Shown here piece by piece: positions 10,375-64,000 of a stretch of DNA of 64,000 nucleotides. The number at the start of each line of letters is the position of its first letter. The first letter of the stretch is position 1. Made by a program: the position numbers and the translations under genes. The DNA is from a virus. The stretch lies in the IMG/VR virus record IMGVR_UViG_3300045999_011383. One strand, given 5' to 3'. Below the pieces are notes generated by a model, which ran no database searches, was not told where the DNA came from, and worked only from the letters and a program-made list of their open reading frames with translations.

Positions 10375-11511
10375 TTAATCTCTTATTTGCACAGGCATGG
10401 TTAAATATGTCATTTTTAATCCACTTAACGGAGTAAAAATAACTGGTTGCAACTGATGATTTAAGTGAATTTGAATCTCTGCGGAAGATAACTCTTTAAG
10501 TCCTTCCAAAAGATATTTAACATTAAACCCGACTTCGATATCAGTACCAGAAACTTGGGCTGGTATTGACTCTATAGCACTACCCACATCTTGAGTTTCG
10601 CAGGACAAAATTACTAGTTGATTGTCCCTATCTAAAGACAATTTGACAATATTGTTTTTCTGACTAGCTAACACAGAAATCCGTTCTAAGGTGCTAATAA
10701 ATTGTTTTCTGTCTATTGTTACTTCTCGCTCAAATTGCCTGGGAATTAATTGATTATAAGCAGGATAATGACCTTCTAATGTGCGACTGGTTAATCTTTG
10801 GTTTCCACGCACAAATACTACTTGTACCGGATCTATGTAAATTTCAACCTGTTCAGGAGCAGAACCCTGGCTTAACATTTTTTGCAATTCTCGTAACGCT
10901 TTAGCAGGAATTGTCACCTCTGATTCTTGATCCTCGTCTGACTCACGACTGGTTTCCACTACCGCTAATCTGTGTCCATCGGTAGAGGCAAATTCTATAC
11001 TATCTCGCTTTAAGAAAAAATGCACACCAGTGAGAACCTGTTTAGTCTCATCAGAGCTAGTAGCAAATAAAGTACGTTGCAGTCCCTCGCTAAGTGCCGA
11101 AGCAGAAACCTCAATTGGTTCTACCTCGTGAACTGTTGGCAACTCAGGAAACTCATCAGCATTCATAGCACGGACTTGATAGCGACCGCTTTTAGGTTTT
11201 AAAGTGACGGTAATACCACCGCTTTCTTCTTCAGTGCTACTGATTGTAATGTCACCCTGGGGTAATTTAGAAACAATATCTAAGAGTAGTTTAGAAGGTA
11301 TGGTAATTTCACCACCCTGTAACACCTGAGCATCAAAAGTAGTACAAATGCCTAAACTTAAATCAAAGGAAGTTAATTCCACTTGATCAGTGTCGCTGTT
11401 AGCCTTTAACAAAATATTAGCAAGTACCGGATGAGTTGGGCGTGAAGGAACAGCACGACTAGCCAAAGAAAGATTGGCGTTAAGTTCAGATTGAGAGCAA
11501 ATTAATTTCAT
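10375..11511 (-). CDS. dnaN: DNA polymerase III beta sliding clamp
   Basis: 378 aa. Canonical N-terminus MKLICSQSELNANLSLASRAVPSRPTHPVLANILLKA, and a three-domain length. Confidence 0.9.
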   Translation of the reverse strand: MKLICSQSELNANLSLASRAVPSRPTHPVLANILLKANSDTDQVELTSFDLSLGICTTFDAQVLQGGEITIPSKLLLDIVSKLPQGDITISSTEEESGGITVTLKPKSGRYQVRAMNADEFPELPTVHEVEPIEVSASALSEGLQRTLFATSSDETKQVLTGVHFFLKRDSIEFASTDGHRLAVVETSRESDEDQESEVTIPAKALRELQKMLSQGSAPEQVEIYIDPVQVVFVRGNQRLTSRTLEGHYPAYNQLIPRQFEREVTIDRKQFISTLERISVLASQKNNIVKLSLDRDNQLVILSCETQDVGSAIESIPAQVSGTDIEVGFNVKYLLEGLKELSSAEIQIHLNHQLQPVIFTPLSGLKMTYLTMPVQIRD

Positions 11512-14323: not shown

Positions 14324-14406
14324 TTGCAACTGGGCTTTGACTTGCAATTAACCCAGTCCCTCAAGGTCGGCTTCTTGCAATTAACCCAGTTCCCCAAGTC
14401 CGGTTT
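14324..14406. repeat. decayed CRISPR repeat remnants
   Basis: TTGCAACTGGGCTT (14324..14337) is the exact reverse complement of repeat positions 22-35. Two 30-bp units CTTGCAATTAACCCAGT(C/T)CC(T/C)CAAG(G/T)(T/C)CGG lie at 14341 and 14374. Confidence 0.55.
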
Positions 14407-15543
14407 GCTTCAACTATCCTCAGTCCCTAAGCCCAGTTGCAAGTGTCAAGGGGTTTATTTTCGAAACCCTTATATTTCCTACGTCGTTTCAACTATCCTC
14501 AGTCCCTAAGCCCAGTTGCAAGTGAAGGACGTGATTCTAATGCAGCAAAGAACATCTGTTTCAACTATCCTCAGTCCCTAAGCCCAGTTGCAAGACACAT
14601 TCTTTATCTTTTAAATATAGCTTATACCATCTGTAGTTTCAACTATCCTCAGTCCCTAAGCCCAGTTGCAAGAACACCTTACCACCTTTAAGGTAAGACG
14701 GCACTTTAGGTTTCAACTATCCTCAGTCCCTAAGCCCAGTTGCAAGACAGAATTGAGAGAACTTTCAAGCCATAAGAGAGTAGCGTTTCAACTATCCTCA
14801 GTCCCTAAGCCCAGTTGCAAGATTTTCAAAAATTTAAAAATGAATCTGGACATGAAGATGTTTCAACTATCCTCAGTCCCTAAGCCCAGTTGCAAGAATG
14901 CACATTAACAAAAAAAAACCATGAAAAACCGTTTCAACTATCCTCAGTCCCTAAGCCCAGTTGCAAGAAAACTTATCAGATACTTAATAAGGCTATAGGT
15001 TAGTTTCAACTATCCTCAGTCCCTAAGCCCAGTTGCAAGCTCCCATTTATACAGCTTACTAGCAGCGCAAATAGTTTCAACTATCCTCAGTCCCTAAGCC
15101 CAGTTGCAAGTCAAAAATCAACAGGAATTGGCCACTACTATTGAAGGATGTTTCAACTATCCTCAGTCCCTAAGCCCAGTTGCAAGATAAAGCCGTCCGG
15201 GGAGGCATGACTAATGAGGATGGTTTCAACTATCCTCAGTCCCTAAGCCCAGTTGCAAGTTGAGACAGTTAAACCCAAGGTACTTTAACCTAGTTTCAAC
15301 TATCCTCAGTCCCTAAGCCCAGTTGCAAGAAAGTATTAAAGAAATGCTCAAACTACCGGCATGTTTCAACTATCCTCAGTCCCTAAGCCCAGTTGCAAGT
15401 TGCTACATTTACCATACTTATGGAAACTGTCAATGTTTCAACTATCCTCAGTCCCTAAGCCCAGTTGCAAGTTACTTTGTAAGACGTTATGTAAGACGGC
15501 GATGGAGTTTCAACTATCCTCAGTCCCTAAGCCCAGTTGCAAG
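14407..15543. CRISPR. CRISPR array with 16 repeats of 37 bp and 15 spacers
   Basis: Repeat GTTTCAACTATCCTCAGTCCCTAAGCCCAGTTGCAAG starts at 14407 (this copy begins GCTT), 14486, 14558, 14636, 14710, 14785, 14860, 14931, 15003, 15074, 15150, 15223, 15293, 15363, 15435 and 15507. The spacers are unique and 33-42 bp long. Confidence 0.95.
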
Positions 15544-15886: not shown

Positions 15887-17761
15887 TTACTTTGTCAAGC
15901 GTTTTTTCTTAAATCTTTTAGGCTTTTGATAAACCAGCCTAACATTATGGTATTTGACCTCTCCCAATTCAAAACCACCATTCTGTTTATGATTTCTAGC
16001 AGCATTGGTATCAGCTTGTTGGGCAACGTCAAATAATTTACAGTCAGGGTTTTTACAGACAAATTCATACTGCGATCGCCTTTCCCCTTTCTGTCCGCAA
16101 CAATGGCATATTTGAGAGCTATAATTAGCAGGTGGTTCATGGAAGTTGCCACCTCTATTTTCTATTTTTTGCTTGGTTTTAGCTTTCAAGTCACCTAAAC
16201 ATCTTTGTCTCATAATCCAGTTTAAACCACGTTTAGCAGATGCACCATTGTGAGCATATCCCACACCCTCTGGTAATGCTTTTGGATCTACTTGTTTAAG
16301 TAAGTTGGTAACTTGTGTATCCTCCCAAGATATATGTTCATAAGTGCGAGATAATCTTGTGGATAACTTGTGATTAAAGGCATTAGAGGAATTAGCCCCG
16401 CGTTCGTGTAGACGGCTGATTTTTTGTTGTAACTTAGATTCATTCTTTGTCTTGATTCTAGAGGTCTTGTTGCCTAAGCTTTTCCATTTTTTATCATTAA
16501 TTAATTCAGCGTTGTCTAGACGTGATTGTAATTCCTCAATGTGAATTGAGATCCGCTCCCTAGTAAGGTTAGGAAGGAATAAAGCCCCATGATCTGTAGA
16601 CACTACAGCCTGTACCCCAGGGTCAATACCCGCACTCAGATTTTTACCTTTTAAAACTGATGACTGCTTAATTTGTTGCTCAATGAATTTCAGTTTTGAC
16701 TTGATATCTTGGTACTCTTCACTGTCTTCACCAAACTCTTTTTTTACCTTGGGTAACTTATTTGTTAGTACAGACTTTTCCTCTTGCAATGGGTGAGCAA
16801 CTACAATATTAATGTAGTATCCTGACTGCTGTTTGGTAATCATGTATGTCCGTGGCAAAACCTGAGAAAGATTCAATCTTTTTACCCAGTTTTTGTCAGC
16901 AATAGTGATGGGAGTAAGTCCGGTGACAGTAACTATGTTTTTGTCAATGTCAATCCTGTTAGGCGCACATTGATTATTAGATAAAGTTGCAATCTTGTCT
17001 ACATCTTTTTTGAATTTTGGCTTTCTACTGTTTATCCTTTTAGGATCTAAAAATGCCTTCCAAGATTCCTTAAAAAATGCTAACAGCCCGCCAATATAGT
17101 GGGAAGAAACCTGCAAGTCTGGTAAATTTTGGAATGCTCTTAAAGTATTTAATCCAGTCACGTTGTCAAGTTTTTCCAAAGTAGTCAGTTCCCTACCCTC
17201 ATACTTTCCACTAGGGAATGTGCGGTATTTGTGAGGGACTATTTCTATCCGTTGCCAGGGCTTATCGCCTTTAACTAATTTGTACCCCTTGACGTAAATA
17301 ACGCCTTTTTTGGTATTAACTGGAATATTGATATTTTCATCTCTCTTCCAATAATTCCCGCCTGTGGCTATTTGACAGGATAATCCTTCATAAGCACTAT
17401 TTCCAAGCCTTAATGGCACAGGAATAATGCCTTCCAAGCTAAATGGACTCCATCTGGTAAATATCTCAAATTCTTTCTTGCTAACTAATTCCTGTTCTTT
17501 TTTAGACAGCTTAGGCTTATCCTTGGTGGAATAGTAATCTTTAACTAATTGTTGTTGCTCAGGTTTAAGTTTTTCCAGTTTTTCAGTAGCCTTGGTTAAA
17601 TCTGCACTGCGTTTAGCAGCCCAAGCATACCAATCTACGCAGTGATTGTGTAGTTGGTTGGAAAGTGCTAAATTCCACAGCCATGTTAATTCATCTAAGT
17701 AGCGATCGCACACAGCCGCCTGTTCTGATGAGAGTTTGATTTTAATCTTAATTGTCTTCAT
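15887..17761 (-). CDS. TnpB/Cas12-family RNA-guided-nuclease-like protein (candidate type V effector)
   Basis: 624 aa. RuvC-I AGIDPGV, RuvC-II ISWEDT, Zn finger CHCCG...CKNPDC, RuvC-III QADTNAARN. TnpB-like N-terminus IKIKLSSEQAAVCDRYLDELTWLWNLAL. Confidence 0.85.
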   Translation of the reverse strand: MKTIKIKIKLSSEQAAVCDRYLDELTWLWNLALSNQLHNHCVDWYAWAAKRSADLTKATEKLEKLKPEQQQLVKDYYSTKDKPKLSKKEQELVSKKEFEIFTRWSPFSLEGIIPVPLRLGNSAYEGLSCQIATGGNYWKRDENINIPVNTKKGVIYVKGYKLVKGDKPWQRIEIVPHKYRTFPSGKYEGRELTTLEKLDNVTGLNTLRAFQNLPDLQVSSHYIGGLLAFFKESWKAFLDPKRINSRKPKFKKDVDKIATLSNNQCAPNRIDIDKNIVTVTGLTPITIADKNWVKRLNLSQVLPRTYMITKQQSGYYINIVVAHPLQEEKSVLTNKLPKVKKEFGEDSEEYQDIKSKLKFIEQQIKQSSVLKGKNLSAGIDPGVQAVVSTDHGALFLPNLTRERISIHIEELQSRLDNAELINDKKWKSLGNKTSRIKTKNESKLQQKISRLHERGANSSNAFNHKLSTRLSRTYEHISWEDTQVTNLLKQVDPKALPEGVGYAHNGASAKRGLNWIMRQRCLGDLKAKTKQKIENRGGNFHEPPANYSSQICHCCGQKGERRSQYEFVCKNPDCKLFDVAQQADTNAARNHKQNGGFELGEVKYHNVRLVYQKPKRFKKKRLTK

Positions 17762-19852: not shown

Positions 19853-20371
19853 GTGACAACCAATCATTACGGAATGCCACAGACACGAGACAAGTGTTAT
19901 GGCGTGGCTGCTTGTTTAAGTTATTGGGTTTTTAAATGCCGTGACAGGAAACGTAGTCCAGCCATGGGAACTAAAACCTGGACATATTTGGAATCTTCTA
20001 TCAAGAATTGTGCAGAAATATCCACAAATTTAGAAGATTATCTACAAAATCTTTGTGATAAATTGATATCGCAATTAAGACCTGTAGAGCTAACCAAAAT
20101 TATTCAACCAACTCAGAGAATACTGAGAATTAATGAAGATGCAACTGAAATCAAGGAACTACCAATAGATCGAAGTTTGGTTTTTATGGGGTGGCTTGAC
20201 TTGCTTGCCGATATTGAACCCCACGGATTTAGTGAGTGGGACGTAATGGAATTGTTAAGAACAAAAACAGGAGTTATTCAAGTAATTTGTCGTCTGCGAT
20301 TTGAAGAAGATAGAAGTGTGGGGCTTGATGAACCAGAAGAATTTATTGAGGTAGAGGTGACAAATGTTTGA
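19853..20371 (+). CDS. first gene of the RAMP operon, possible small-subunit (Cas11-like) protein
   Basis: 172 aa with a GTG start after GGGAAAG. The 8-nt overlap with the next gene and the size fit, but I saw no diagnostic motif. Confidence 0.3.
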   Translation: MTTNHYGMPQTRDKCYGVAACLSYWVFKCRDRKRSPAMGTKTWTYLESSIKNCAEISTNLEDYLQNLCDKLISQLRPVELTKIIQPTQRILRINEDATEIKELPIDRSLVFMGWLDLLADIEPHGFSEWDVMELLRTKTGVIQVICRLRFEEDRSVGLDEPEEFIEVEVTNV

Positions 20372-21497
20372 TAATTATAATATTTTTGACAGAGAGAAAT
20401 TAACCCTGCATTGCTTAATCACGCTACAGACACCATTGAGCCATATAGGCGAAGTGTCTGGCAATGTTAGCAATCTGAAAACTACTAAGTTATTGGACTT
20501 TGAAGGTAATCCTAGAAGTGTTTTTGTCTATTCTGGTAATGCAATCAGAAACGGTATTTTGCGCCGGGTAGGAGTGGCAGCAGCACTCACGGAATTAGGA
20601 ATTAAGGTAAATCCAGATACTCACCATACAATGTTTGCTGGCGGGCGAATTGATGGGGGGACAGCTTCGGATATGGAACTGGATAAAAAGATCCGGGTCT
20701 TTATGCCTTGGCTATCAGTATTGGGAACAGCCAAACCCATAGGTGTTTTTGGGACTAAAGAAGCCCAGATGGTAGCTGGTAGAAGTAATATTGGCAGTGG
20801 TTATTTAGTCTGCTATGAGTCAGCAGAATACGTTTACAACCAACTCCCAGCAGTTTTACCACCGGAAATACAGCCAACTATGGCCTTATTAATTGAAGCT
20901 AAAACCAGACTTTCTTCCGACCCTTTTGTATCCACAAAATCAGAAGACTTAACTAACTGGAATCAAGCAAAATCAGAATGTTTGCCACTGATCAAAAAAG
21001 CAATGAAAACATGGACTGAATACTTAACAATTGATCAGACAACTCGCAGAGATAGCACTTTAGATCCCAACTTACTCAAATTTCTACCATCAGAAGTACA
21101 AGCACAATTAACAGGTGATGGTAAAACTAAAGAAAAAACTAAATCAGATCAGATGATTGCGTCTGACAGGCTGATCATGCCCGGTGCTAAACTTTATTCT
21201 CGATGGGATCTAACTTGTACTCAAATAGAAGAGGGATGGATATTTGATACTTTACTCAAGTTTTCAGAATCACCTTATATTGGTGGTAAAGGCAATCGTG
21301 GCAATGGCAGGGTTCATCTTGATTTCTGGTTTCAGTCTGACCATGAACGGGGGTTATTGTGTTCTCTGAAAGATGGAATTATGGGAGATAGGTTTCTTAA
21401 TTCCCATCAAAAATATCGGGAATATATCAATCAGTATCAGCAGTTTTTAAGTGAAGCAAAAACATCCAAGGAATTAAGGAAGTTGTTAGGTGAATAA
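20364..21497 (+). CDS. RAMP protein, Cas7/Csf2-like backbone subunit
   Basis: 377 aa. N-terminal LHCLITLQTPLSHIG, then YSGNAIRNGILRR, and a C-terminal glycine-rich loop YIGGKGNRGNGRV typical of RAMPs. Confidence 0.6.
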   Translation: MFDNYNIFDREKLTLHCLITLQTPLSHIGEVSGNVSNLKTTKLLDFEGNPRSVFVYSGNAIRNGILRRVGVAAALTELGIKVNPDTHHTMFAGGRIDGGTASDMELDKKIRVFMPWLSVLGTAKPIGVFGTKEAQMVAGRSNIGSGYLVCYESAEYVYNQLPAVLPPEIQPTMALLIEAKTRLSSDPFVSTKSEDLTNWNQAKSECLPLIKKAMKTWTEYLTIDQTTRRDSTLDPNLLKFLPSEVQAQLTGDGKTKEKTKSDQMIASDRLIMPGAKLYSRWDLTCTQIEEGWIFDTLLKFSESPYIGGKGNRGNGRVHLDFWFQSDHERGLLCSLKDGIMGDRFLNSHQKYREYINQYQQFLSEAKTSKELRKLLGE

Positions 21498-22176
21498 TTT
21501 AAAAGTCACTGCATATTTGTCTACACCGATTGGTGTCTATGACAATTGGAGTCCTTCTTTGGAGGGACTTCTTACCTATAGATTACTAGAAGAAAATAAT
21601 CTATTGTCTCCCAATCCCACCGCAGAGCAAGTAGCAAAGGTTCAGAATTTTTTAGTAAATGAATTACCGCTTAAACAGAATACAATAATGAATGATAAGT
21701 ATTTCTGTGTAAGTTCACCTTGCTATGTGGTTCAAGGTGAGGCTACTGATAAATATCGGAAAAGATGGGACAATCACGAAAATAATCTGAACTGGGGAAA
21801 AAGAAAGCCTAAATTCTTGACGGGTGAAGGTGCAGAAAAGTCCTATGATTTACCGCTATACACTCGTTTAACAAATAGTATTAGTTGGTTTGTAACAGGC
21901 GACAGAACCAAGATTGACGCTCTATTGTCACCTGTTACCCATATTCAGAAAAAACGAAGTTATGGCAATGGTGAAGTTAAGCAATGGCAACTAGAAATAG
22001 TTTATGACGACTATCATTTGTGGCGAGATAATAAACTAATGCGTCCTATGCCCGTGAAGTTAATATCACAAAAAATAGATAATCCTCAAATGATTTGGGG
22101 ATGGAAAAGCCCGTCTTGGTTAGCAGAAAATAAAGAACTTTGTTATATGCCAAAGGACAATGTGATTTATGCTTAG
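21490..22176 (+). CDS. RAMP protein, Cas5/Csf3-like
   Basis: 228 aa. LKVTAYLSTPIGVYDNWSPSLEGLLTYRLL N-terminus and a KKRSYGNGEV glycine loop. Overlaps both neighbouring genes. Confidence 0.5.
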   Translation: MNNLKVTAYLSTPIGVYDNWSPSLEGLLTYRLLEENNLLSPNPTAEQVAKVQNFLVNELPLKQNTIMNDKYFCVSSPCYVVQGEATDKYRKRWDNHENNLNWGKRKPKFLTGEGAEKSYDLPLYTRLTNSISWFVTGDRTKIDALLSPVTHIQKKRSYGNGEVKQWQLEIVYDDYHLWRDNKLMRPMPVKLISQKIDNPQMIWGWKSPSWLAENKELCYMPKDNVIYA

Positions 22177-22915
22177 TAATGGCTCTGGGGTTCAATACCC
22201 TTGGTTGAAAAAGAAAATTACTAAAGCTATTAATTTCATTAATCAGTGGCTAGAACAATGCAACTATCAGGTTTATGCAAGTATTTCCGGTGGTAAAGAT
22301 AGCTTAGTAATGTCTCATTTGATCAGGAAAGTTTACCCTGATTGCCCGTTAGTTTGGGTAAATCAAGGGCTGTTAGCAGAATGGGATGATTGTATTGAAT
22401 TATTGGAATACTTGAAAACTCAAAACTGGAACATTATTGAGCTTTGTCCAGTTCGTGATTTATGGCATTTATACATAGATCACGGAGTTCCGTTAGAGGG
22501 TACGATGGATACAAAAGTAGATAAATTAATCAACCAAAAATTGATTTATGATCCATTGCAAGAATACCAAGAAATCAACAATATCAAAGGGTACGCATGG
22601 GGAATAAGGAAGCAAGAAAGCAAAAACAGAGCATTTTATCTTAACAAGTACGGTGAAGTTCATGAACTAAAAAATGGGTTAATTTGTTGCTCGCCTATTG
22701 CTCACTGGACTACAGAAGAAATATGGCAGTACATAGATATGTACTCACTCAAATACCCAGCAATTTATGACATTAACAAAATGACAGTCAGGAATGGTTG
22801 CCCGATTGGAACTACAGGAGCAAACTGGGGTAGATTAGCTGAATTAAAAAGATATTACCCCAATATTTACAACCAATTTGTTGATAAATTCCCACAAATA
22901 TCGAACTATGTCTAA
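22169..22915 (+). CDS. PAPS-reductase/CysH-like PP-loop protein
   Basis: PP-loop SISGGKDS and WGIRKQESKNR. I saw no C-terminal ECGLH motif (it reads RNGCPIG instead). Confidence 0.8.
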   Translation: MLSNGSGVQYPWLKKKITKAINFINQWLEQCNYQVYASISGGKDSLVMSHLIRKVYPDCPLVWVNQGLLAEWDDCIELLEYLKTQNWNIIELCPVRDLWHLYIDHGVPLEGTMDTKVDKLINQKLIYDPLQEYQEINNIKGYAWGIRKQESKNRAFYLNKYGEVHELKNGLICCSPIAHWTTEEIWQYIDMYSLKYPAIYDINKMTVRNGCPIGTTGANWGRLAELKRYYPNIYNQFVDKFPQISNYV

Positions 22916-23666
22916 TTGCTACCTTTGCGCTAAACCAGCATCAAATCCACTAGAATTATCCAATACTTTCACCATGCACTCATCGGCTAAGTGTCCAGAC
23001 TCTAAGCTGCTGTGCGATCGCTGCTATTCTACAATTTCTGGTAATCAAAAGCAGTTATGGTATTGGAATGAAGGTAAAAATAAGTGGTCAAAACTGTGGG
23101 GACGATCTTTGTCCAGGGTGTACCAAGGCGATACTTTAATAGCACCAATAATTAAAGGCACTCACACTGAAGGCAAAGATACTTTCAGTGTGGTTAGAAA
23201 CTTATTGACGCGGGTAGAAATCAGGGAATATTTATTAAATCCTCCTGAGCCACCGTTCACTATCGCTATAGCAGAATCAGGACAAAAACACATTATCCCA
23301 TGGGCATTAGAAGCGCGTAGCTGTAACTTTTTTCCAATTCAATTTGAGTTAGACACGGTTTATATTGACAACAGATTCAAGGAATCTTTGCAAGTATATG
23401 AACAACTAATGGGATTAGGGTTTAGTAAGTCTGAAATTGATTCAGGAAACTACAGAAGCGATAGATTGATGAAAGTGTTTGATAAATTTTGGGAACTTGA
23501 GGAATCCATAAAAGCCATTAGAGGGACTAGATTAATGGAATTAATAAATTACGTCGCTCAACTACAATCAAGTGCCGTCGTGGCGGAAATAAAGCCAATT
23601 CCTGTAATTCCTGTTTCTCCCACGAGTCCAGACAAATCAAATCCAGTTCAGTTATCGTTGTTTTAG
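22908..23666 (+). CDS. Zn-ribbon protein, Csf1-like large-subunit candidate, with C-terminal clamp-binding motif
   Basis: The ATG at 22908 overlaps the cysH-like stop (ATGTCTAA). N-terminal CYLC...CPDSKLLCDRC. The C-terminus is NPVQLSLF followed by the stop. Confidence 0.45.
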   Translation: MSNCYLCAKPASNPLELSNTFTMHSSAKCPDSKLLCDRCYSTISGNQKQLWYWNEGKNKWSKLWGRSLSRVYQGDTLIAPIIKGTHTEGKDTFSVVRNLLTRVEIREYLLNPPEPPFTIAIAESGQKHIIPWALEARSCNFFPIQFELDTVYIDNRFKESLQVYEQLMGLGFSKSEIDSGNYRSDRLMKVFDKFWELEESIKAIRGTRLMELINYVAQLQSSAVVAEIKPIPVIPVSPTSPDKSNPVQLSLF

Positions 23667-23699
23667 CAAAAACCCTTATAATTCCGATCCGTTAAAAAT

Positions 23700-23774
23700 A
23701 ACGCTGGAGTCTTTAAAATCAACGCTGGAGTCAGCAAAGATAACGCTGGAGTCCTTAAAATTAACATTGGAGTC
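23700..23774. repeat. four 21-bp-phased iterons AAC(G/A)(C/T)TGGAGTC
   Basis: Cores at 23700, 23721, 23742 and 23763. They are followed by the AT-rich tandem AACAATCTTAATT x2 (23805..23830). The same core occurs at 41848..41901. Confidence 0.7.
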
Positions 23775-25548: not shown

Positions 25549-26712
25549 TTAGCACATACTTAGTTGGGTTTCATTGTTTGCAAGTGAAGCGCAAATATCG
25601 TACATCTCAGCCCATACGTAATCATCTTTTGCAATTGACGACAAAGGCTGTCCTGCGTATTTTGCTTGCATAGATATTTGAAAATATCTAGTTAACATTT
25701 TTTTGATCAAACTTATCTTGGTTTTCTCGCTTACTTGCAATCTGTAGTCCCCTGTTTCAGTTTTTTCTACAAAAACTCTAAAACCAGAAATTATCGGGAA
25801 AACCAAAGATTGCTGAGTTATCACACAGGTAAGTATTTCATGGTTAGGCAACTTGGTATATTTCCTAGCGTCGTTTCCACTTTTTGTAAACCTTGTTCCT
25901 GTAGCACTAGAATGATGCTGTTCTTCTAGCCTTTTGAATATTTTAGACTGAATATCTATAGCGTCGTGAACTAACGAAAAAAGTTTTTTTGGTACTAAGT
26001 CTCGACGTATAGAATTAGCGGCGTGTATTGAAAGCTTTGGATGCTTCTTTTTGCTGGTATTGGACGGAGAATAACTTGGATCTAGTGCCAAAATAAGACT
26101 GCAAATCCTGGCAATTGTACAGCACCCATCAACATTTGTTGTCTGCACTCCAAATTGTCCTTCGTGATAAATAATTCTGTACTTTTCAAGCTGCGGCTTC
26201 ATCCAGTCATAGTCACCGCTATAATTTGCTAAACTCATTTTTGAGACGGCTTTACTGGTATTTAATGCGATCGCCTTTTCTTTTAATTCAATTTCATCAA
26301 AACCTGAATAGATTATGATGTTTACAAAAACTTGAGAAATATCTATCTCTTTAAAATTAGCAGCCACGCAAAAAGCTAATAGCCGATGACCACCATCTAA
26401 CAATCCATCGGAATCTTTAAACGTCAATCTAATCAAACTTGCAGTAATTTTTGAGCAATCAGCAGCAAGATGAAGTGGTGAACTAATAACCGAAACACCC
26501 TTTTTTAAGGACTCAATTATTGACTCGGTAACAGAGTTTTTTGTCGGTCTTCTTACGTTGGCAGTTAGCGGGATTTTCCATAAAAGATGAGATTCGCTTT
26601 TACCGTTAGCTTCAACTAAATCCTTAAGAGTAGTTGATACATGATACTCTTTTCCCTGTTGAACTGGAAATTCATTTAACGACCGGATGTTTAAACTAAT
26701 AGCGTGTGCCAT
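25549..26712 (-). CDS. DGQHR/ParB-nuclease-fold (DndB/DUF262-like) protein
   Basis: 387 aa. SDGLLDGGHRLLAF resembles the DGQHR/DGQQR motif. The assignment is tentative. Confidence 0.45.
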   Translation of the reverse strand: MAHAISLNIRSLNEFPVQQGKEYHVSTTLKDLVEANGKSESHLLWKIPLTANVRRPTKNSVTESIIESLKKGVSVISSPLHLAADCSKITASLIRLTFKDSDGLLDGGHRLLAFCVAANFKEIDISQVFVNIIIYSGFDEIELKEKAIALNTSKAVSKMSLANYSGDYDWMKPQLEKYRIIYHEGQFGVQTTNVDGCCTIARICSLILALDPSYSPSNTSKKKHPKLSIHAANSIRRDLVPKKLFSLVHDAIDIQSKIFKRLEEQHHSSATGTRFTKSGNDARKYTKLPNHEILTCVITQQSLVFPIISGFRVFVEKTETGDYRLQVSEKTKISLIKKMLTRYFQISMQAKYAGQPLSSIAKDDYVWAEMYDICASLANNETQLSMC

Positions 26713-27627: not shown

Positions 27628-28482
27628 ATGATTAATCAAGTAATTCATGGTGATTGTTTTGAAGTTTTGAAAACTATTCCTGATGGTTCTATTGACGCTG
27701 TAATCACAGATCCGCCTTACATGACAACTGATTTAAACTTTGATAAAACAGGCTTTGATGTTGACTTATTCTTAAAATTATTATTACCAAAACTTAAAAG
27801 TGATGGACAATTAGCTGCATTTGGGAGTATTGAATTACTTGCTAAGTTTAGCGGTATTTATCCTATTAGATGGTCAGGAATGTGGTTAAAACCGAGAGGA
27901 GTGATGAGAACTCATACAGCCAAGAAACCTATGAGCAAAAGCGAACCTTACTGTATATTTGCTCACCCAAAACATAAAGTATCAAACCTTGTTTATAACA
28001 AAATATTATTGCCAGGAGAGCCTTATGAAAAAAAACAAAAAAATACTGGCTATATTAGAGACGGCAAAAATCAAATAGATAGAGCAAATACTTCTGCATG
28101 GACTAAGGACGGGTATATCTCAAAAAACCTGGGTACAAGACAACAAACAGATGTTATTGAATCTCCGTTCAAAGGCTGCATGAAACATCATGAACGAACC
28201 ATTCACCCCACACAAAAGCCTGTAGCACTGATATCTACATTGGTTCAGTGGATAACCAACCCCGGCGATACAGTCCTTGACCCTTTTGCTGGTAGTGGTA
28301 CAACAGCACTAGCCTGTAAAGAACTCAACAGAAACTATATCTGCATTGAGAAGGAACGGGAATATATTGACATTATTCATCAACGCCTAAACACACCCAT
28401 AGCTGAAAGGGGATTAACTGTAGAGGAACAGGTAGAGATTGAGAAAACTAAGTCACCTTATCAACAGTTGTCATTGTTTTAG
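27628..28482 (+). CDS. beta-class N6A/N4C DNA methyltransferase with C-terminal clamp-binding motif
   Basis: DPPY (VITDPPYM) lies before FxGxG (DPFAGSGTT). The C-terminus is YQQLSLF followed by the stop. Confidence 0.85.
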   Translation: MINQVIHGDCFEVLKTIPDGSIDAVITDPPYMTTDLNFDKTGFDVDLFLKLLLPKLKSDGQLAAFGSIELLAKFSGIYPIRWSGMWLKPRGVMRTHTAKKPMSKSEPYCIFAHPKHKVSNLVYNKILLPGEPYEKKQKNTGYIRDGKNQIDRANTSAWTKDGYISKNLGTRQQTDVIESPFKGCMKHHERTIHPTQKPVALISTLVQWITNPGDTVLDPFAGSGTTALACKELNRNYICIEKEREYIDIIHQRLNTPIAERGLTVEEQVEIEKTKSPYQQLSLF

Positions 28483-41330: not shown

Positions 41331-41387
41331 ATGAATCATCTTTTGGTTTTTGTCAATAAACTGTTGCACGCCCGTGGAGGTGTGTAA
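41331..41387 (+). CDS. possible 18-codon leader ORF coupled to the initiator gene
   Basis: MNHLLVFVNKLLHARGGV. Its TAA overlaps the initiator ATG (TAATG), and AGGAG lies upstream. Confidence 0.3.
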   Translation: MNHLLVFVNKLLHARGGV

Positions 41388-42562
41388 TGGGAAAACACTT
41401 AATAAGACACTACGGACGGTATATTTATCGTCATGAAGATTATCAGGCGATTTGTCAAGGGGATGACTGCGCCGCACAAGTTCTTAGTTTATTTGAGTTC
41501 TGGACCAGTTGCCGAATAGAAGAGATTCGGCGTGTACAAAGCTACAACGATCAAAACAAGAAAAATACTTCTCTTGTTTTGCAAGTACCAACGATGTGGT
41601 TGTACGAAACCACTGAAGATATAAGCATAGGCATATTAAATGCCTATGGCGACTCGTCCATAAGGAAGTCAGTTAAAAAGCTTCTTGACTGGGGGTTTCT
41701 TGATTCAAGAAATTCTAAGCACAATTTTGATCGAACTAAAGAATACAGATTTAACACTGATGTGATTCAATCAGCACTAGATCAGTGGAACAATCAAAAT
41801 CAAGATGTAAACGCTGAAAGCATTGATAAATCCGATCCGTTAAAAACAACGTTGGAGTCGGTGAAAAAAACGTTGGAGTCGGTGAAAAAAACGTCGGAGT
41901 CGGTGATTTTAGAGGATGATCTATATTCTTCTAACATTCAAATTAAACAATCAGATTTAACAGCAGGGGTGAAAAGACCAGAAGTAGAAAATCAACTTGT
42001 GGATTTAAACCCAAACCACTCTAGAACTTTTGATTTAAAAGGAAGTCTTTCCCATAACCCGATAACCCCTCCAGAGGGTCAATTTGCGCCCGCCGCCCCG
42101 GCGCGTCTTGACAAAGCGAATATTACTGAACCATTTGGAAGGCCGCGCAAGACGGCTAAAGAAATAGCCTGGGAATGGCTACCAGATGGACCGTGGAAGA
42201 AAGAAGGGCAACTGGATAATGAGTTCTGGCAATGGCTCGCGTTGCAGTGGATGTCGCAGTTTGGCACTGATATCCATCAGGCGAGGGCTAACGTCTACAG
42301 CCACTTCAAAAAGGACACTAACAACCTAGAAATCCGATGGAAGGAATATTCCATCAAAACCAAAAAAGAGGTGGCTGTAACACCCCTTCCTGAAATTGTA
42401 TTAACGTGGCTGCCTATGCAGCATCAGGTCGTATGGGAACAGTACATCAACTGCAAGAGCCTAGAAGAATTTTATAGCAAGCGCAGTTGGAATCAAGCGT
42501 ATTTGGAGTACGCATTAATCAATCAAGCCAACTTTGATTGGTCTAAACATTTATCTGCATAA
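41387..42562 (+). CDS. replication initiator (lambda O-like logic: iterons inside the gene)
   Basis: 391 aa with a wHTH-like N-terminal half. It contains 3 phased iterons that encode TLESVKK repeats, and it lies directly upstream of dnaB. Confidence 0.55.
   Translation: MGKHLIRHYGRYIYRHEDYQAICQGDDCAAQVLSLFEFWTSCRIEEIRRVQSYNDQNKKNTSLVLQVPTMWLYETTEDISIGILNAYGDSSIRKSVKKLLDWGFLDSRNSKHNFDRTKEYRFNTDVIQSALDQWNNQNQDVNAESIDKSDPLKTTLESVKKTLESVKKTSESVILEDDLYSSNIQIKQSDLTAGVKRPEVENQLVDLNPNHSRTFDLKGSLSHNPITPPEGQFAPAAPARLDKANITEPFGRPRKTAKEIAWEWLPDGPWKKEGQLDNEFWQWLALQWMSQFGTDIHQARANVYSHFKKDTNNLEIRWKEYSIKTKKEVAVTPLPEIVLTWLPMQHQVVWEQYINCKSLEEFYSKRSWNQAYLEYALINQANFDWSKHLSA
41848..41901. repeat. three 21-bp-phased iterons AACG(T)(T/C)GGAGTC inside the initiator gene
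   Basis: Cores at 41848, 41869 and 41890. The flanking CCGATCCGTTAAAAA also precedes the 23700 cluster. Confidence 0.7.
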
Positions 42563-48508: not shown

Positions 48509-49267
48509 ATGGCTAGTGTAAATACAGGCATTGAATGGACAGATAAAACCTGGAATCCTACCACAGGTTGCGACAAAGTTAGCCCAGGTTGCTTACATTG
48601 TTACGCAGAGACTTTAACTAACCGATTCCCCAAATCTTTTCCTTATGGATTTGATTTAACGCTATATCCAGAAAGACTGAAAGAGCCTTTAAAATGGCGT
48701 ACTCCCAGTAGAATCTTTGTTAATAGCATGAGTGACTTATTCCACAAAAAAGTACCCTTAGATTTTATTCAAGAGGTCTTTAAAGTCATTCAGGCTACCC
48801 CTCACCATGTCTATCAAATATTAACAAAAAGACCGGAGCGATTAGTTGAATTATCACCACATCTAGAGTTTCATAAAAATATCTGGTTAGGTGTATCAGT
48901 GGAAAATCAAAGTTATGTTTCTCGTATTGACTTACTGCGTCAAGTACCAGCAAATGTGCGGTTTCTGTCTTGTGAGCCATTGCTAGGTTCATTAAACCTT
49001 GACCTCACAGGCATTGATTGGGTCATTGTTGGTGGGGAATCTGGACAAAAACACCGTCCGATGAAAATTGAATGGGCTGAAAGTATCCGTGATCAATGTC
49101 AAAAAGCAAAAGTAGCATTTTTCTTTAAACAAGTTGGTGGTAAAACTCCTAAGTCTGGAGGTAGTCTTTTAAGCGGACAATTGTTACAGCAAATGCCCGC
49201 TGCTTGGGAAAAACACCAAGCTACTGCTTGGCTTAAACAGCCTAAGCAAGTTGCTTTGTTTAACTAG
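48509..49267 (+). CDS. phage Gp37/Gp68-family (DUF5131-like) protein
   Basis: Signature N-terminus GIEWTDKTWNPTTGCDKVSPGCLHCYAE. The C-terminus is KQVALFN. Confidence 0.75.
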   Translation: MASVNTGIEWTDKTWNPTTGCDKVSPGCLHCYAETLTNRFPKSFPYGFDLTLYPERLKEPLKWRTPSRIFVNSMSDLFHKKVPLDFIQEVFKVIQATPHHVYQILTKRPERLVELSPHLEFHKNIWLGVSVENQSYVSRIDLLRQVPANVRFLSCEPLLGSLNLDLTGIDWVIVGGESGQKHRPMKIEWAESIRDQCQKAKVAFFFKQVGGKTPKSGGSLLSGQLLQQMPAAWEKHQATAWLKQPKQVALFN

Positions 49268-61353: not shown

Positions 61354-64000
61354 TTACCGCTTATAAGGATTACCTCTACTGATAGAACCACCGGGTCTTA
61401 ATTCCCTGCGAATACCATCGCTCACAAGTGCCTGTACAGTCTGTGACAACCTGTTAGAATCAACCTCTGAATCATTGCCACTTACGGATACACTGACAGG
61501 GACATTAACGGTAGTAGTATTGCCAATCCTTGAGGCCATCTCACCTTTACCACCACCGACTATACCACCATCAGCAAAACCAGTAATACCAGATTGCAAT
61601 CTATTCCAAACAGCCGTTTCCCTGTGATTAAGAATACGCTCACCTTCAGAAGCTACTATCAAGTGGGGTGTCTTACCAGTGAGAGAGCGTTCTTTGTTCA
61701 TTGCTCCCACAATCCCCCCGTTAGCAAAATTCTGGATTTTACCCAGGGTATCTTTATCAATCATGCCACCCTTAGCAAATCCTGATAGAGTGGCTGTACC
61801 AAAATCACTGGCCACAAAAGTAGAAGGATCTACAAAATCCATGCCAGTGGGAACAAAAGAGTTAATACCTCCTAAGTTCATTAGCCCAAAAGACATATCA
61901 CCTCCCATGCCGGCAAAATCAGAAATATCAGACGTATTCCCCTTGTCCTTACCTTCCCCGCCTTCCTTCTGTCTAGCGGTGTTTGCTGCATCTTGAAGTG
62001 CGTAGGCAGCTTTTTCTAATTCGTGAGCAGATTTAGACAATAGTTGAACAGACACGGCTGCTTGTTGTAGTTGCAATGCTGCTGCGCTTAACCCCTGGGT
62101 TGGTGGTTGTATCCAACTAAAGAGCGCATTAGTCATGTACTTGGATGCAATTTCAGCTAAACTATCAAGGATACTATTAGCTATTCCTTTCCAAAGCTTA
62201 TCCAGTGAATCAGCCCAACTATCTCCTTCTTTGTTCCAAATAAATTCTTTAAAGGCACTCTTAAAGCCACCTGTGAAAGACTTGAGAACTTGGCTAAACT
62301 CTGAATATTGAATCTTAATAGCTTCTGATTTTAATGCCATTTCCGCATCTAAATTTTCTCTAAGCGCGATCGCATTTTCATTGCTGATTTTCATATTTTC
62401 AACATCTTGTTCTAGTTGCATCTTCTTCTGTGCGTACTCATGGCTTAAATTAATTTGGGCTATCTGCTTATCAATTCTTTCCCCAGCCAGGTCAAGTCCT
62501 AGTGCCTTAGCAATATTACCTTTACTCTCTAATACAGTTTTAGCGGAATCAGATACTTTGATCCTAGTATCTAATTCTGTTTTTTGATTTTGTAGTTCAC
62601 CCTTGCGAGTATCGCGCTCAGATTGTTTTCTAATTGCACCTAACTCAAGTCCACTGTTTACTTTGAGAGCATCTATGCGTTGTTGCCTTTGTTCTGCGGT
62701 GAGTTTAGTATTGTTTTGGGTGTCAAGGATTTCTCTATTAAGTCTGTTTAATGCACTTTCCTGTTCCAGGGTAGCCCGCTTAGAAATATTAGCAACATCT
62801 ACCATGCCATCTGCGGCTGTGGCTGCAAACATCTTTGCCTGTAAATCTAAGTTTTTAATACCAACATCCTCAATCAAGATTTTGACATCTAAAGCATTTA
62901 TTTCTCGTTCAATTTGTTTGGCTAAATTGTCAGTATTGTACTGCATATCAACTTTTTCCATCCCTAATTTATAGGTTGTTTCAATCGCCTTTCTTCTGCG
63001 CTCAAAGTCCTCTTTAGTCATTGATCCCCGCTTAGTTCTCTGTTGCTCTAGTAATTCATTCTCAGATTTTAGTTTTTGATTTTGTAAACTAGCGATCGCT
63101 ACTACCCGCTCCATTGATGGTATCTGCAATATATCTTTATTTAATGGGAACGATTTTTCTTTTTGTTTAAGCAACTCTAATTGACTTTGCAGTACGCCTA
63201 TATCAATACCAAGATTGTCAGACATACGAGTGTTTTGTGATATTTTTTGCCTAAAAATAAAATCATCTTTAAGCCGTTGTAGGATCATAGGCTTGTTTTT
63301 TATCAGGGCATTTAATTGGTTTTGGGCTGACTGGGCTTCTTTGGTATTGGAACTTTGCAAAGCACTATAGAGTTTTTGCAGTTCTTTCCCGTCCGTTTTT
63401 ATGCCAAGTGATTGAAGTCGCTTAACCAAAGTGTTAATTTCTTCTCCAGACAGATTGGGCATTCGAGATGCGCGAACAATCTTTCTGAGACTATTACTTT
63501 CTTCATCTATCCTGAGTGATTCCTCTGCGTATGCTAAATCAAATTTTTTCTGTTCAGTAGCAGCAGGGTCACTATCAAGAAGTATCTTCCTAGTAGTTAG
63601 TTCACGTCGTCGTCTACGTAGGTCTGTATCATCTTTTTTGTTTTCAGTCTCTATTCTTAATTTTCTCAGATCCGTTAGTGCTTTGATTATGGCAGCCCTC
63701 TCCTGTTCCTTTGAGAGTCTAATTTGTTCCTTTGTTAACTGTGTCTTTGTCTGTGCATTAGCAGTGGGTGCTTGAGGGATAAGTTGTTGTTGTGTTTTGG
63801 AATCAAGTTTTTCCCCTCTTATCTGTTTTTCTGTTAGTTTTCTAGCAGTGTCTTGAGGGGTTTCTGTTGGTTTTTCTTCTCTCTTTCGTGCTTCTTCTCT
63901 CTTTCGTGCTTCTTCTCTCTTTCGTGCTTCTTCTCTCTTTCGTGCTTCTTCTCTCTTTCGTGCTTCTTCTCTCTTTCGTGCTTCTTCTCTCTTTCGTGCT
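61354..64000 (-). CDS. tail tape measure protein, 5' end outside the window
   Basis: I translated 63463..64000 by hand in the frame of the 702-aa ORF and found no stop and no Met, so the gene is at least 882 codons. It has long coiled-coil content, a Gly-rich C-terminal part, and sits before the tail-tip genes. Confidence 0.7.
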   Translation of the reverse strand, partial: ARKREEARKREEARKREEARKREEARKREEARKREEARKREEKPTETPQDTARKLTEKQIRGEKLDSKTQQQLIPQAPTANAQTKTQLTKEQIRLSKEQERAAIIKALTDLRKLRIETENKKDDTDLRRRRRELTTRKILLDSDPAATEQKKFDLAYAEESLRIDEESNSLRKIVRASRMPNLSGEEINTLVKRLQSLGIKTDGKELQKLYSALQSSNTKEAQSAQNQLNALIKNKPMILQRLKDDFIFRQKISQNTRMSDNLGIDIGVLQSQLELLKQKEKSFPLNKDILQIPSMERVVAIASLQNQKLKSENELLEQQRTKRGSMTKEDFERRRKAIETTYKLGMEKVDMQYNTDNLAKQIEREINALDVKILIEDVGIKNLDLQAKMFAATAADGMVDVANISKRATLEQESALNRLNREILDTQNNTKLTAEQRQQRIDALKVNSGLELGAIRKQSERDTRKGELQNQKTELDTRIKVSDSAKTVLESKGNIAKALGLDLAGERIDKQIAQINLSHEYAQKKMQLEQDVENMKISNENAIALRENLDAEMALKSEAIKIQYSEFSQVLKSFTGGFKSAFKEFIWNKEGDSWADSLDKLWKGIANSILDSLAEIASKYMTNALFSWIQPPTQGLSAAALQLQQAAVSVQLLSKSAHELEKAAYALQDAANTARQKEGGEGKDKGNTSDISDFAGMGGDMSFGLMNLGGINSFVPTGMDFVDPSTFVASDFGTATLSGFAKGGMIDKDTLGKIQNFANGGIVGAMNKERSLTGKTPHLIVASEGERILNHRETAVWNRLQSGITGFADGGIVGGGKGEMASRIGNTTTVNVPVSVSVSGNDSEVDSNRLSQTVQALVSDGIRRELRPGGSISRGNPYKR
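63873..64000 (-). repeat. perfect 18-bp tandem repeat, at least 7 copies, encoding (ARKREE)n in the tape measure gene
   Basis: CTTCTTCTCTCTTTCGTG units start at 63873 (1 mismatch), 63891, 63909, 63927, 63945, 63963 and 63981, and continue to the window edge. Confidence 0.9.

Follow-up and report, generated by a model that had tools for sequence, protein, structure and literature searches.

A putative sliding-clamp-binding motif at the C-terminus of Csf1 in a cyanophage-borne type IV-B CRISPR-Cas module

Type IV-B is the most enigmatic of the CRISPR-Cas subtypes. In the published descriptions, it is depicted with neither array nor nuclease nor helicase, its ribonucleoprotein (RNP) binds heterogeneous RNA, and the substrate of its CysH-like partner is not known (PMC7038947; PMC8175902). 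To which site in the cell could such a complex be directed? This question is raised by a module encoded in a viral DNA of 64,000 nucleotides, the whole of which is hereafter called the window, where the last subunit of the complex, Csf1, ends in the pentapeptide QLSLF. An earlier note on this DNA had regarded this ending as a canonical clamp-binding motif that would, if functional, recruit the RNP to sliding clamps, and the analysis reported here considers the module, the motif, its distribution among homologues and the partner that it could address.

The window is part of a tailed cyanophage or prophage, with phage-type genes that include a tail protein J-like gene, a Mu-type portal, DnaB and a DnaD-like initiator. 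The module comprises five genes in the order cas11-csf2-csf3-cysH-csf1, csf1 coming last, and each successive pair overlaps by 8 nt, so that the five genes are considered a translationally coupled operon (Table 1). This set, i.e. cas11, csf2, csf3 and csf1 accompanied by a cysH-like gene, is the one described for type IV-B in the reference accounts (PMC7038947; PMC8175902). Pfam gave no match to the four Csf/Cas11 genes, which were identified by PADLOC and NCBIfam. The immediate neighbours of the operon are Dcm, an AIPR-like ORF, an N6/N4 methyltransferase and KilA-N, and neither a DinG/RecD helicase, nor Cas6/Csf5, nor a nuclease was found among the operon genes or these neighbours. Regarding relatives, nucleotide searches with the operon returned no match in the PLSDB plasmids or the INPHARED phages; at the protein level, tblastn with Csf1 gave none in the phage collection and, in the plasmid collection, only a tail-less copy from Gloeobacter together with a weak Thermococcus match. 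Relatives are encoded in 121 IMG/VR viral contigs, and the IV-B modules homologous to this one, with tailed as well as tail-less Csf1, sit in phage-like contigs.

Table 1. Coordinates in the window of the type IV-B operon, of the parts of csf1 and of the two other genes relevant to the clamp-binding reading.
Feature	Coordinates	Strand	Evidence
Phage beta sliding clamp DnaN, candidate docking partner beside the host clamp	10375..11511	-	Three Pfam DNA_pol3_beta domains; PDB
cas11-like small subunit, first gene of the operon	19853..20371	+	PADLOC typeIV_Cas11 2.5e-06
csf2 (Cas7-like backbone subunit)	20364..21497	+	PADLOC Csf2_0_IV 9.1e-35; NCBIfam cas7_csf2 4.5e-07
csf3 (Cas5-like)	21490..22176	+	PADLOC Csf3_0_IV 2.5e-40; NCBIfam cas5_csf3 2.7e-09
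cysH-like PAPS-reductase-family gene, type IV-B signature accessory	22169..22915	+	Pfam PAPS_reduct 6.1e-18; NCBIfam cysH-type
csf1, globular core (aa 1-218) with Cys4 zinc ribbon CxxC...CxxC	22908..23561	+	PADLOC; AF2; Foldseek
csf1, Pro-rich disordered linker (aa 219-247)	23562..23648	+	AF2 pLDDT 40-54; beyond profile
csf1, C-terminal QLSLF pentapeptide, putative beta-clamp-binding motif	23649..23663	+	Sequence; TAG 23664-23666
N6/N4 DNA methyltransferase ending in QLSLF	27628..28482	+	Pfam N6_N4_Mtase 2.6e-31

The reading frame of csf1 occupies 22908-23666 on the plus strand; the longest version of the ORF spans 22878-23666 (262 aa), and the ATG at 22908 was retained as start because the identical database protein, P0001, has 252 aa. 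The protein had been called Csf1-like and assigned to a type IV-B-like module, an identity borne out by the PADLOC model Csf1_0_IV (1.6e-21) and the NCBIfam csf1 model, by the flanking Cas11, Csf2, Csf3 and CysH-like genes, and by structure, as the two top Foldseek matches of the predicted model are Csf1 from type IV-A (7xg1_A and 8rc3_G, probability 1.00, TM about 0.5). The cysteines C4, C7, C36 and C39, forming an N-terminal Cys4 zinc ribbon, are invariant or nearly so among the homologues. In the AlphaFold2 (AF2) model, built with 91 homologues, the mean pLDDT is 88.8 and the core (residues ~1-220) exceeds 90, in contrast to the last ~30 residues, where pLDDT falls to 40-54 and secondary structure is absent; likewise, the PADLOC profile ends around residue 227 of the 262-aa ORF, covering the core and leaving the tail beyond it. 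The pentapeptide thus occupies the extreme terminus of a region predicted to be flexible, as the last 5 residues of the protein. It is encoded by CAGTTATCGTTGTTT at 23649-23663 and the TAG stop follows at once at 23664-23666, exactly where the earlier note had placed the end of its Zn-ribbon protein.

As for the sequence of this tip, QLSLF equals the published consensus of bacterial clamp clients, QL(S/D)LF, which is located C-terminally, so the designation as a canonical clamp-binding motif was justified; matches to this consensus are nonetheless degenerate and hard to call by sequence alone (PMC9690074). Throughout the window, which holds 281 ORFs of at least 40 aa, QL[SDGE]LF occurs anywhere in the protein only in the Csf1 and methyltransferase ORFs, and a third real gene, of the DUF5131 family (48509-49267), has a motif-like ending, QVALFN.

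A survey of Csf1 C-termini, which had been proposed as a check, proved positive, the motif being found in roughly 30-50% of the close, distant and viral homologues. A match as short as a pentapeptide could arise by coincidence, or persist as a non-functional remnant, through codon or composition bias or shared ancestry, all the more as many of the close homologues are from related phages. The counts argue otherwise. The strict motif lies in the last 12 residues of 38 of 117 close homologues, against a mean of 0.75 and a maximum of 4 in 200 tail shuffles, many of these sequences coming from related phages, with the consequence that they do not count as independent events. Considering all comparisons, shuffled tails yield 0.4-0.75 occurrences where 22-38 are observed; the motif appears in less than 1% of internal 12-residue windows taken from these proteins, and neighbouring ORFs end in it in 8 of 1,640 cases (0.5%). 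In 53 of 71 cases, the motif is the very C-terminus. The close-homologue variants are QLSLF, QLALF, QLTLF, QMALF, QLCLF, QLALW and QLSIW, in some cases with a single G or S after them. Across the allowed substitutions, Q is fixed, the second residue is L or M, the fourth L or I and the fifth F, W or L.

The contrast between this tip and the segment bearing it is equally marked. About 40 of the 120 closest Csf1 homologues have an extension of 20-35 residues, rich in Pro, Glu, Val and Lys, which can hardly be aligned from one lineage to another. The linker is hypervariable, 21-54 aa long, with P at 17%, E at 11%, V at 11% and K at 9%. While the linkers differ, the motif is kept in 38 of the 39 tails that reach 15 residues or more past the core. 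Fixed terminal residues behind unalignable linkers are hardly what bias or descent would leave; whenever the tail exists, its tip is under selection, as read from these sequences. The occurrence of the motif exceeds chance, with an enrichment of about 50-fold over shuffled tails, and coincidence, already contradicted by these data, is an extremely improbable account of it.

The same ending is found well outside the close relatives. A profile search over 1.84 billion representatives returned 904 Csf1 relatives, and among the best 149 of these, 35 of the 123 full-length sequences end in Qxx[LMI][FW], for 0.5 expected, in a set made of representatives at 50% identity whose members may belong to IV-B or to other type IV systems. 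The motif-bearing distant Csf1 include clearly non-cyanobacterial, GC-rich sequences. Three examples can be given with their genetic context, namely a Prochlorotrichaceae Csf1 whose tail ends in GQLLLF inside a type IV gene set, a Polynucleobacter Csf1 ending in GQLSLF in a Csf3-CysH-Csf3-Csf1 set, and a Saccharibacteria Csf1 ending in RQLGLFGI with csf2, csf3 and cas6 alongside. In IMG/VR viral contigs, at least 31 of 80 Csf1 have the motif, over a GC content of 0.32-0.70, and further viral Csf1 end in heptapeptides of the EQLALDLF type. When all ORFs of at least 120 aa in the 80 viral loci are considered, the strict C-terminal motif is present in 34 of 1,720, of which 26 are Csf1 and 4 are methyltransferases.

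The tail is on the other hand far from general. It is absent from about 50-65% of the Csf1 homologues, some of which are >80% identical to the phage Csf1, and for this reason the core function of type IV-B cannot depend on it. On a neighbour-joining tree, 13 or more gains or losses are needed to account for its presence, from which it follows that the tail is dispensable and labile. The tail is hence an accessory rather than a universal feature of Csf1. In the tail-less loci, no other Csf subunit was found to carry the motif.

Conservation of this kind shows selection on the motif, not the identity of its partner. Hydrophobic C-termini can serve as degradation or docking signals, and the pentapeptide could be functional with another partner, be it a Csf subunit, the CysH-like enzyme, a phage protein, a protease or its adaptor (the motif being then a degron), or a PDZ-type reader. 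Such alternatives fit poorly with several features of the distribution: an intra-complex peg is unlikely to have been lost at least 13 times, the substitutions allowed in Csf1 are those of the clamp motif, and the motif spans Csf1 loci with GC contents of 0.32 to 0.70 in different phyla. Besides, an unrelated family of DNA methyltransferases ends in the same pentapeptide.

This second occurrence had been pointed out in the earlier note, which described the same ending, with nearly the same DNA, on a methyltransferase of the window. The gene indeed closes with CAGTTGTCATTGTTT at 28465-28479 and TAG at 28480-28482, i.e. QLSLF and its stop at 28465-28482, and a motif of the same type ends 70 of 120 homologues of the methyltransferase, some of them after unrelated linkers. 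Their endings include QLALF, QLKLF, QMNLF, QLELF, QLNLF and QMSLF, and a methyltransferase fragment on a related phage contig ends in KQLSLFG. The likeness in DNA of the two QLSLF-coding stretches was also considered as a possible sign of recombination and set aside, the upstream linkers being unrelated and shared codon usage being sufficient to explain it. Csf1 and the methyltransferase are unrelated families that share the pentapeptide alone across many host lineages and phyla, which argues for a partner that every bacterium has and that matters to enzymes acting on DNA. On these sequence grounds, the beta clamp is the obvious candidate, and a partner other than the clamp appears unlikely.

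A candidate clamp is encoded in the window itself. The phage DnaN is full-length and matched beta clamps in the PDB down to 6.4e-54. Its alignment with the E. coli clamp shows identity at L155, T172, G174, H175, R176, L177, P242, N320, Y323, M362 and P363, positions that form the peptide-binding cleft in the complexes of E. coli beta with peptides from Pol IV and Pol II. By retaining the TDGHRL and MP cleft residues, the phage has a clamp with a canonical hydrophobic cleft on hand, and the host clamp is presumably canonical as well. A fusion of DnaN with the Csf1 tail, modelled with single-sequence AF2 without alignment, collapsed (mean pLDDT 30) and weighs neither for nor against docking. In related loci, the 10-kb flanks, which are short for this purpose, contained no DnaN except for one weak match.

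The presence of such a clamp also bears on another reading, in which clamp binding would serve interference. Abundant motif proteins of the phage, Csf1 and the methyltransferase, would fill the cleft of the host clamp and displace polymerases and repair factors, leading to shut-off or takeover of host replication in the manner of SocB, a clamp-binding toxin that acts through the usual motif (PMC9690074). A phage that itself encodes DnaN, DnaB and an initiator-like protein could afford to poison the host clamp, and the motif is carried by several of its proteins. The phage clamp however retains the same cleft and would be blocked too; what is more, each protein displays a single pentapeptide of ordinary consensus and has evident nucleic-acid functions of its own, and the tail also occurs in bacterial MAG contigs (Polynucleobacter, Prochlorotrichaceae and Saccharibacteria), which are short and either chromosomal or mobile. 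Poisoning of the host clamp is thus rather improbable. Taking these elements together, the Csf1 tail is probably a clamp-binding tether, a putative function in which the clamp would be a docking site.

Two repeat arrays lie in the vicinity of the operon. A CRISPR array of 16 repeats (16 x 37-nt) at 14407-15543, 4.3 kb upstream of the operon, adjoins a gene for a 624-aa TnpB/V-U2-like protein, a pairing also published for the V-U2 locus of cyanophage vB_AphaS-CL131 and on account of which the array was left unassigned to Csf. It most likely belongs to the V-U2 gene, though it may be used by the Csf complex; inside or beside the csf operon, no CRISPR array was found. One spacer of the array matches CL131 and two related viral contigs. 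The repeat was also envisaged as a mimic of a host repeat and this idea was dropped, as no exact match was found among the GTDB species representatives. Directly after the csf1 stop comes an iteron array with a 21-bp period, a duplicate of one located within the DnaD-like initiator gene. Related loci have no such array behind csf1, and it is therefore treated as belonging to the phage rather than to the Csf system. Rfam and tRNA scans of the whole window were empty.

How the putative tether would operate can be outlined as follows. The QLSLF tip, at the end of a disordered Pro-rich tether of ~30 residues, would bind the hydrophobic cleft of a bacterial beta clamp, either that of the host, the phage DnaN or both, and the tail would thereby hold Csf1, the Cas8-like large subunit, on clamps loaded on DNA. 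The Csf2/Csf3/Cas11 ribonucleoprotein and the CysH-like enzyme would be held there too via Csf1, since Csf1 is the large subunit in type IV-A structures and, in the IV-B study, was purified together with the complex. In this way the complex would accumulate at replication forks and on newly replicated DNA. The methyltransferase would use the same device, presumably for methylating phage DNA as it is synthesised, in the way Dnmt1 works through PCNA in eukaryotes. The neighbourhood of the operon, where Dcm, the methyltransferase with the clamp motif and the CysH-like PP-loop enzyme are gathered, suggests a role for the Csf complex in modifying or marking replicating DNA. As a more speculative and, on balance, doubtful extension, the tail-bearing third to half of type IV-B, if not all of it, would be replication-coupled: the Csf RNP on clamps would deliver the CysH-like PP-loop enzyme to newly made DNA or to fork RNA and there alter or mark nucleic acid, or prevent rival elements from replicating.

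The earlier note knew of no description of a link between type IV and the clamp, and in the openly available full-text literature no report of it was found for Csf1 or type IV-B. In a survey paper and a review on type IV (PMC7038947; PMC8175902), a keyword search retrieved no passage on a Csf1-clamp link, the sole match to 'clamp' being an author name in the references, and the published IV-B complex is studied without reference to clamps. The motif class is well known; Csf1, as identified by its sequence, would be a new client of it, though a prior description is possible. A putative clamp handle on the large subunit would provide the first positional clue to type IV-B function, namely clamp-loaded replicating DNA, and would make the question of this function directly testable. 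If the clamp reading is true, the bacterial clamp interactome would gain a CRISPR-type RNP as well as a family of DNA methyltransferases from phages and bacteria, the latter as a bacterial counterpart of Dnmt1-PCNA. If the replication-coupled reading is true as well, this mode of action would be without precedent among CRISPR-Cas effectors and would account for type IV-B needing neither nuclease nor helicase.

Among known systems, the closest resemblance is to the canonical clamp clients, i.e. Pol II, IV and V, MutS, MutL, Hda and NucS/EndoMS, whose QL[SD]LF-type tails present the same consensus pentapeptide at the terminus of a flexible tail, and where, likewise, the motif is kept as the tether drifts, on proteins acting on DNA. 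The difference lies in the nature of the protein, Csf1 being a Cas8-like subunit of a CRISPR-type ribonucleoprotein, here recognised from sequence. We know of no class of clamp clients formed by Cas8-like subunits of CRISPR RNPs. In Tn7, as reportedly established by Parks, Peters and colleagues in 2009, TnsE binds the beta clamp and steers transposition to replicating (conjugating) DNA, and is a mobile-element protein that finds actively replicating DNA through a clamp interaction, as is proposed here for Csf1. TnsE however belongs to no RNP and carries its motif internally, whereas the Csf complex would itself bear the handle, with no linked transposase. CRISPR-associated Tn7-like transposons likewise employ a Cascade-type complex in the alternative role of target selector.

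In phage T4, the gp45 clamp works with gp33/gp55, and in phage Mu, MuC works with the beta clamp (PMC12867686 for MuC). These are phage regulatory proteins with clamp-binding peptides that couple an activity to replicating phage DNA, as is proposed here; they are transcription factors, whereas the clients here would be a CRISPR-type complex and a methyltransferase. Dnmt1-PCNA offers the parallel of a DNA methyltransferase equipped with the peptide that docks on the sliding clamp in its own domain of life, with the difference that it is eukaryotic, uses a PIP box and is demonstrated experimentally, the phage methyltransferase case being deduced from sequence (PMC9690074). Lastly, the type IV-B systems already known, e.g. 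that of Mycobacterium sp. JS623, have the same genes and lack Cas6, helicase and nuclease (PMC7937560; PMC8175902), from which the present one differs in being borne by a cyanophage, in having a V-U2-adjacent array 4.3 kb away and in the clamp-motif tail of its Csf1.

Beside the CRISPR array (Table), whose repeat has no exact match among the GTDB species representatives, lies a TnpB/Cas12-like gene, and the type IV-B operon follows 4.3 kb downstream of the array. A putative type V-U2 locus has been published for the Aphanizomenon cyanophage vB_AphaS-CL131 (PMC6293099), and its layout, i.e. an array beside a TnpB-like gene, is the same as in the phage studied here, in which V-U2 and type IV-B therefore occur together, as a locus and a module respectively. 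Regarding the spacers, none matches the window itself; spacer 2 (14523-14557) matches the TnpB-like gene annotated as 'transposase' in vB_AphaS-CL131 at 31/34 positions, as well as the related IMG/VR contigs L022 (33/35) and L023 (29/30), where Csf1 is 86-88% identical to that of the window. These matches of spacer 2 suggest phage-against-phage targeting.

Coordinates and main characteristics of the features discussed in the window
Feature	Position	Strand	Characteristics
Beta sliding clamp DnaN	10375-11511	-	Peptide-binding cleft conserved
Degenerate repeats of the CRISPR array	14341-14400		
CRISPR array	14407-15543		16 identical 37-nt repeats GTTTCAACTATCCTCAGTCCCTAAGCCCAGTTGCAAG; spacers of 33-42 nt
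TnpB/Cas12-like ORF	15887-17761	-	624 aa; adjoins the CRISPR array
Iteron block after the csf1 stop	23684-23774		Four copies of AACGCTGGAGTC, 21-bp spacing
387-aa ORF	25549-26712	-	Located between the genes of the Dcm methylase and of the methyltransferase bearing the clamp motif
N6/N4 DNA methyltransferase	27628-28482	+	C-terminus QQLSLF
Second iteron block	41830-41901		Three copies (AACGTTGGAGTC, AACGTCGGAGTC); 80% identical to the post-csf1 block
DUF5131 (phage Gp37/Gp68 family) protein	48509-49267	+	C-terminus QVALFN

Besides Csf1, the methyltransferase bears a clamp-type C-terminal motif, which is found in 70 of its 120 homologues (Dolichospermum, Microcystis and others), including enzymes of about 450 aa with different N-terminal parts; in the literature searched, a clamp motif is not described for any methyltransferase of bacteria or phages. 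Judging from its last residues, the DUF5131 protein is possibly a third clamp-motif protein of this phage. The phage encodes its own DnaN, the closest phage relatives of which are the clamps of Nodularia phages (38% identity), and no DNA polymerase gene was found within the window.

A plasmid-borne relative of the type IV-B module is present in Gloeobacter morelensis (pGMOR1, 72458-83153), where a Cas6/Cmx6 is annotated, a cupin gene separates cysH from csf1, and Csf1, annotated as a hypothetical protein only, is devoid of the C-terminal extension bearing the clamp motif; close to this module, the plasmid also encodes Dcm and a further PAPS reductase. In the window, the 387-aa ORF next to the Dcm methylase shows a weak match to the Pfam AIPR (abortive-infection) family in the precomputed annotation of the identical contig L001, and no match in Pfam, PHROGs or PADLOC when searched here. 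The window closes (63874-64000) with 7.1 copies of an 18-nt unit, TTCTTCTCTCTTTCGTGC, which form a perfect tandem repeat that is cut off by the last nucleotide.

Iterons occur in two blocks. In the one located immediately behind the csf1 stop, the fourth copy reads AACATTGGAGTC and CCGATCCGTTAAAAA stands ahead of the copies; downstream of csf1 in related loci, iterons are absent. The second block resides within the ORF of a DnaD-like helicase loader (41387-42562), immediately upstream of DnaB. This arrangement is like that of lambda O, where the origin lies within the initiator gene, and besides this lambda-O-like set the phage harbours an extra one beside the type IV-B module.
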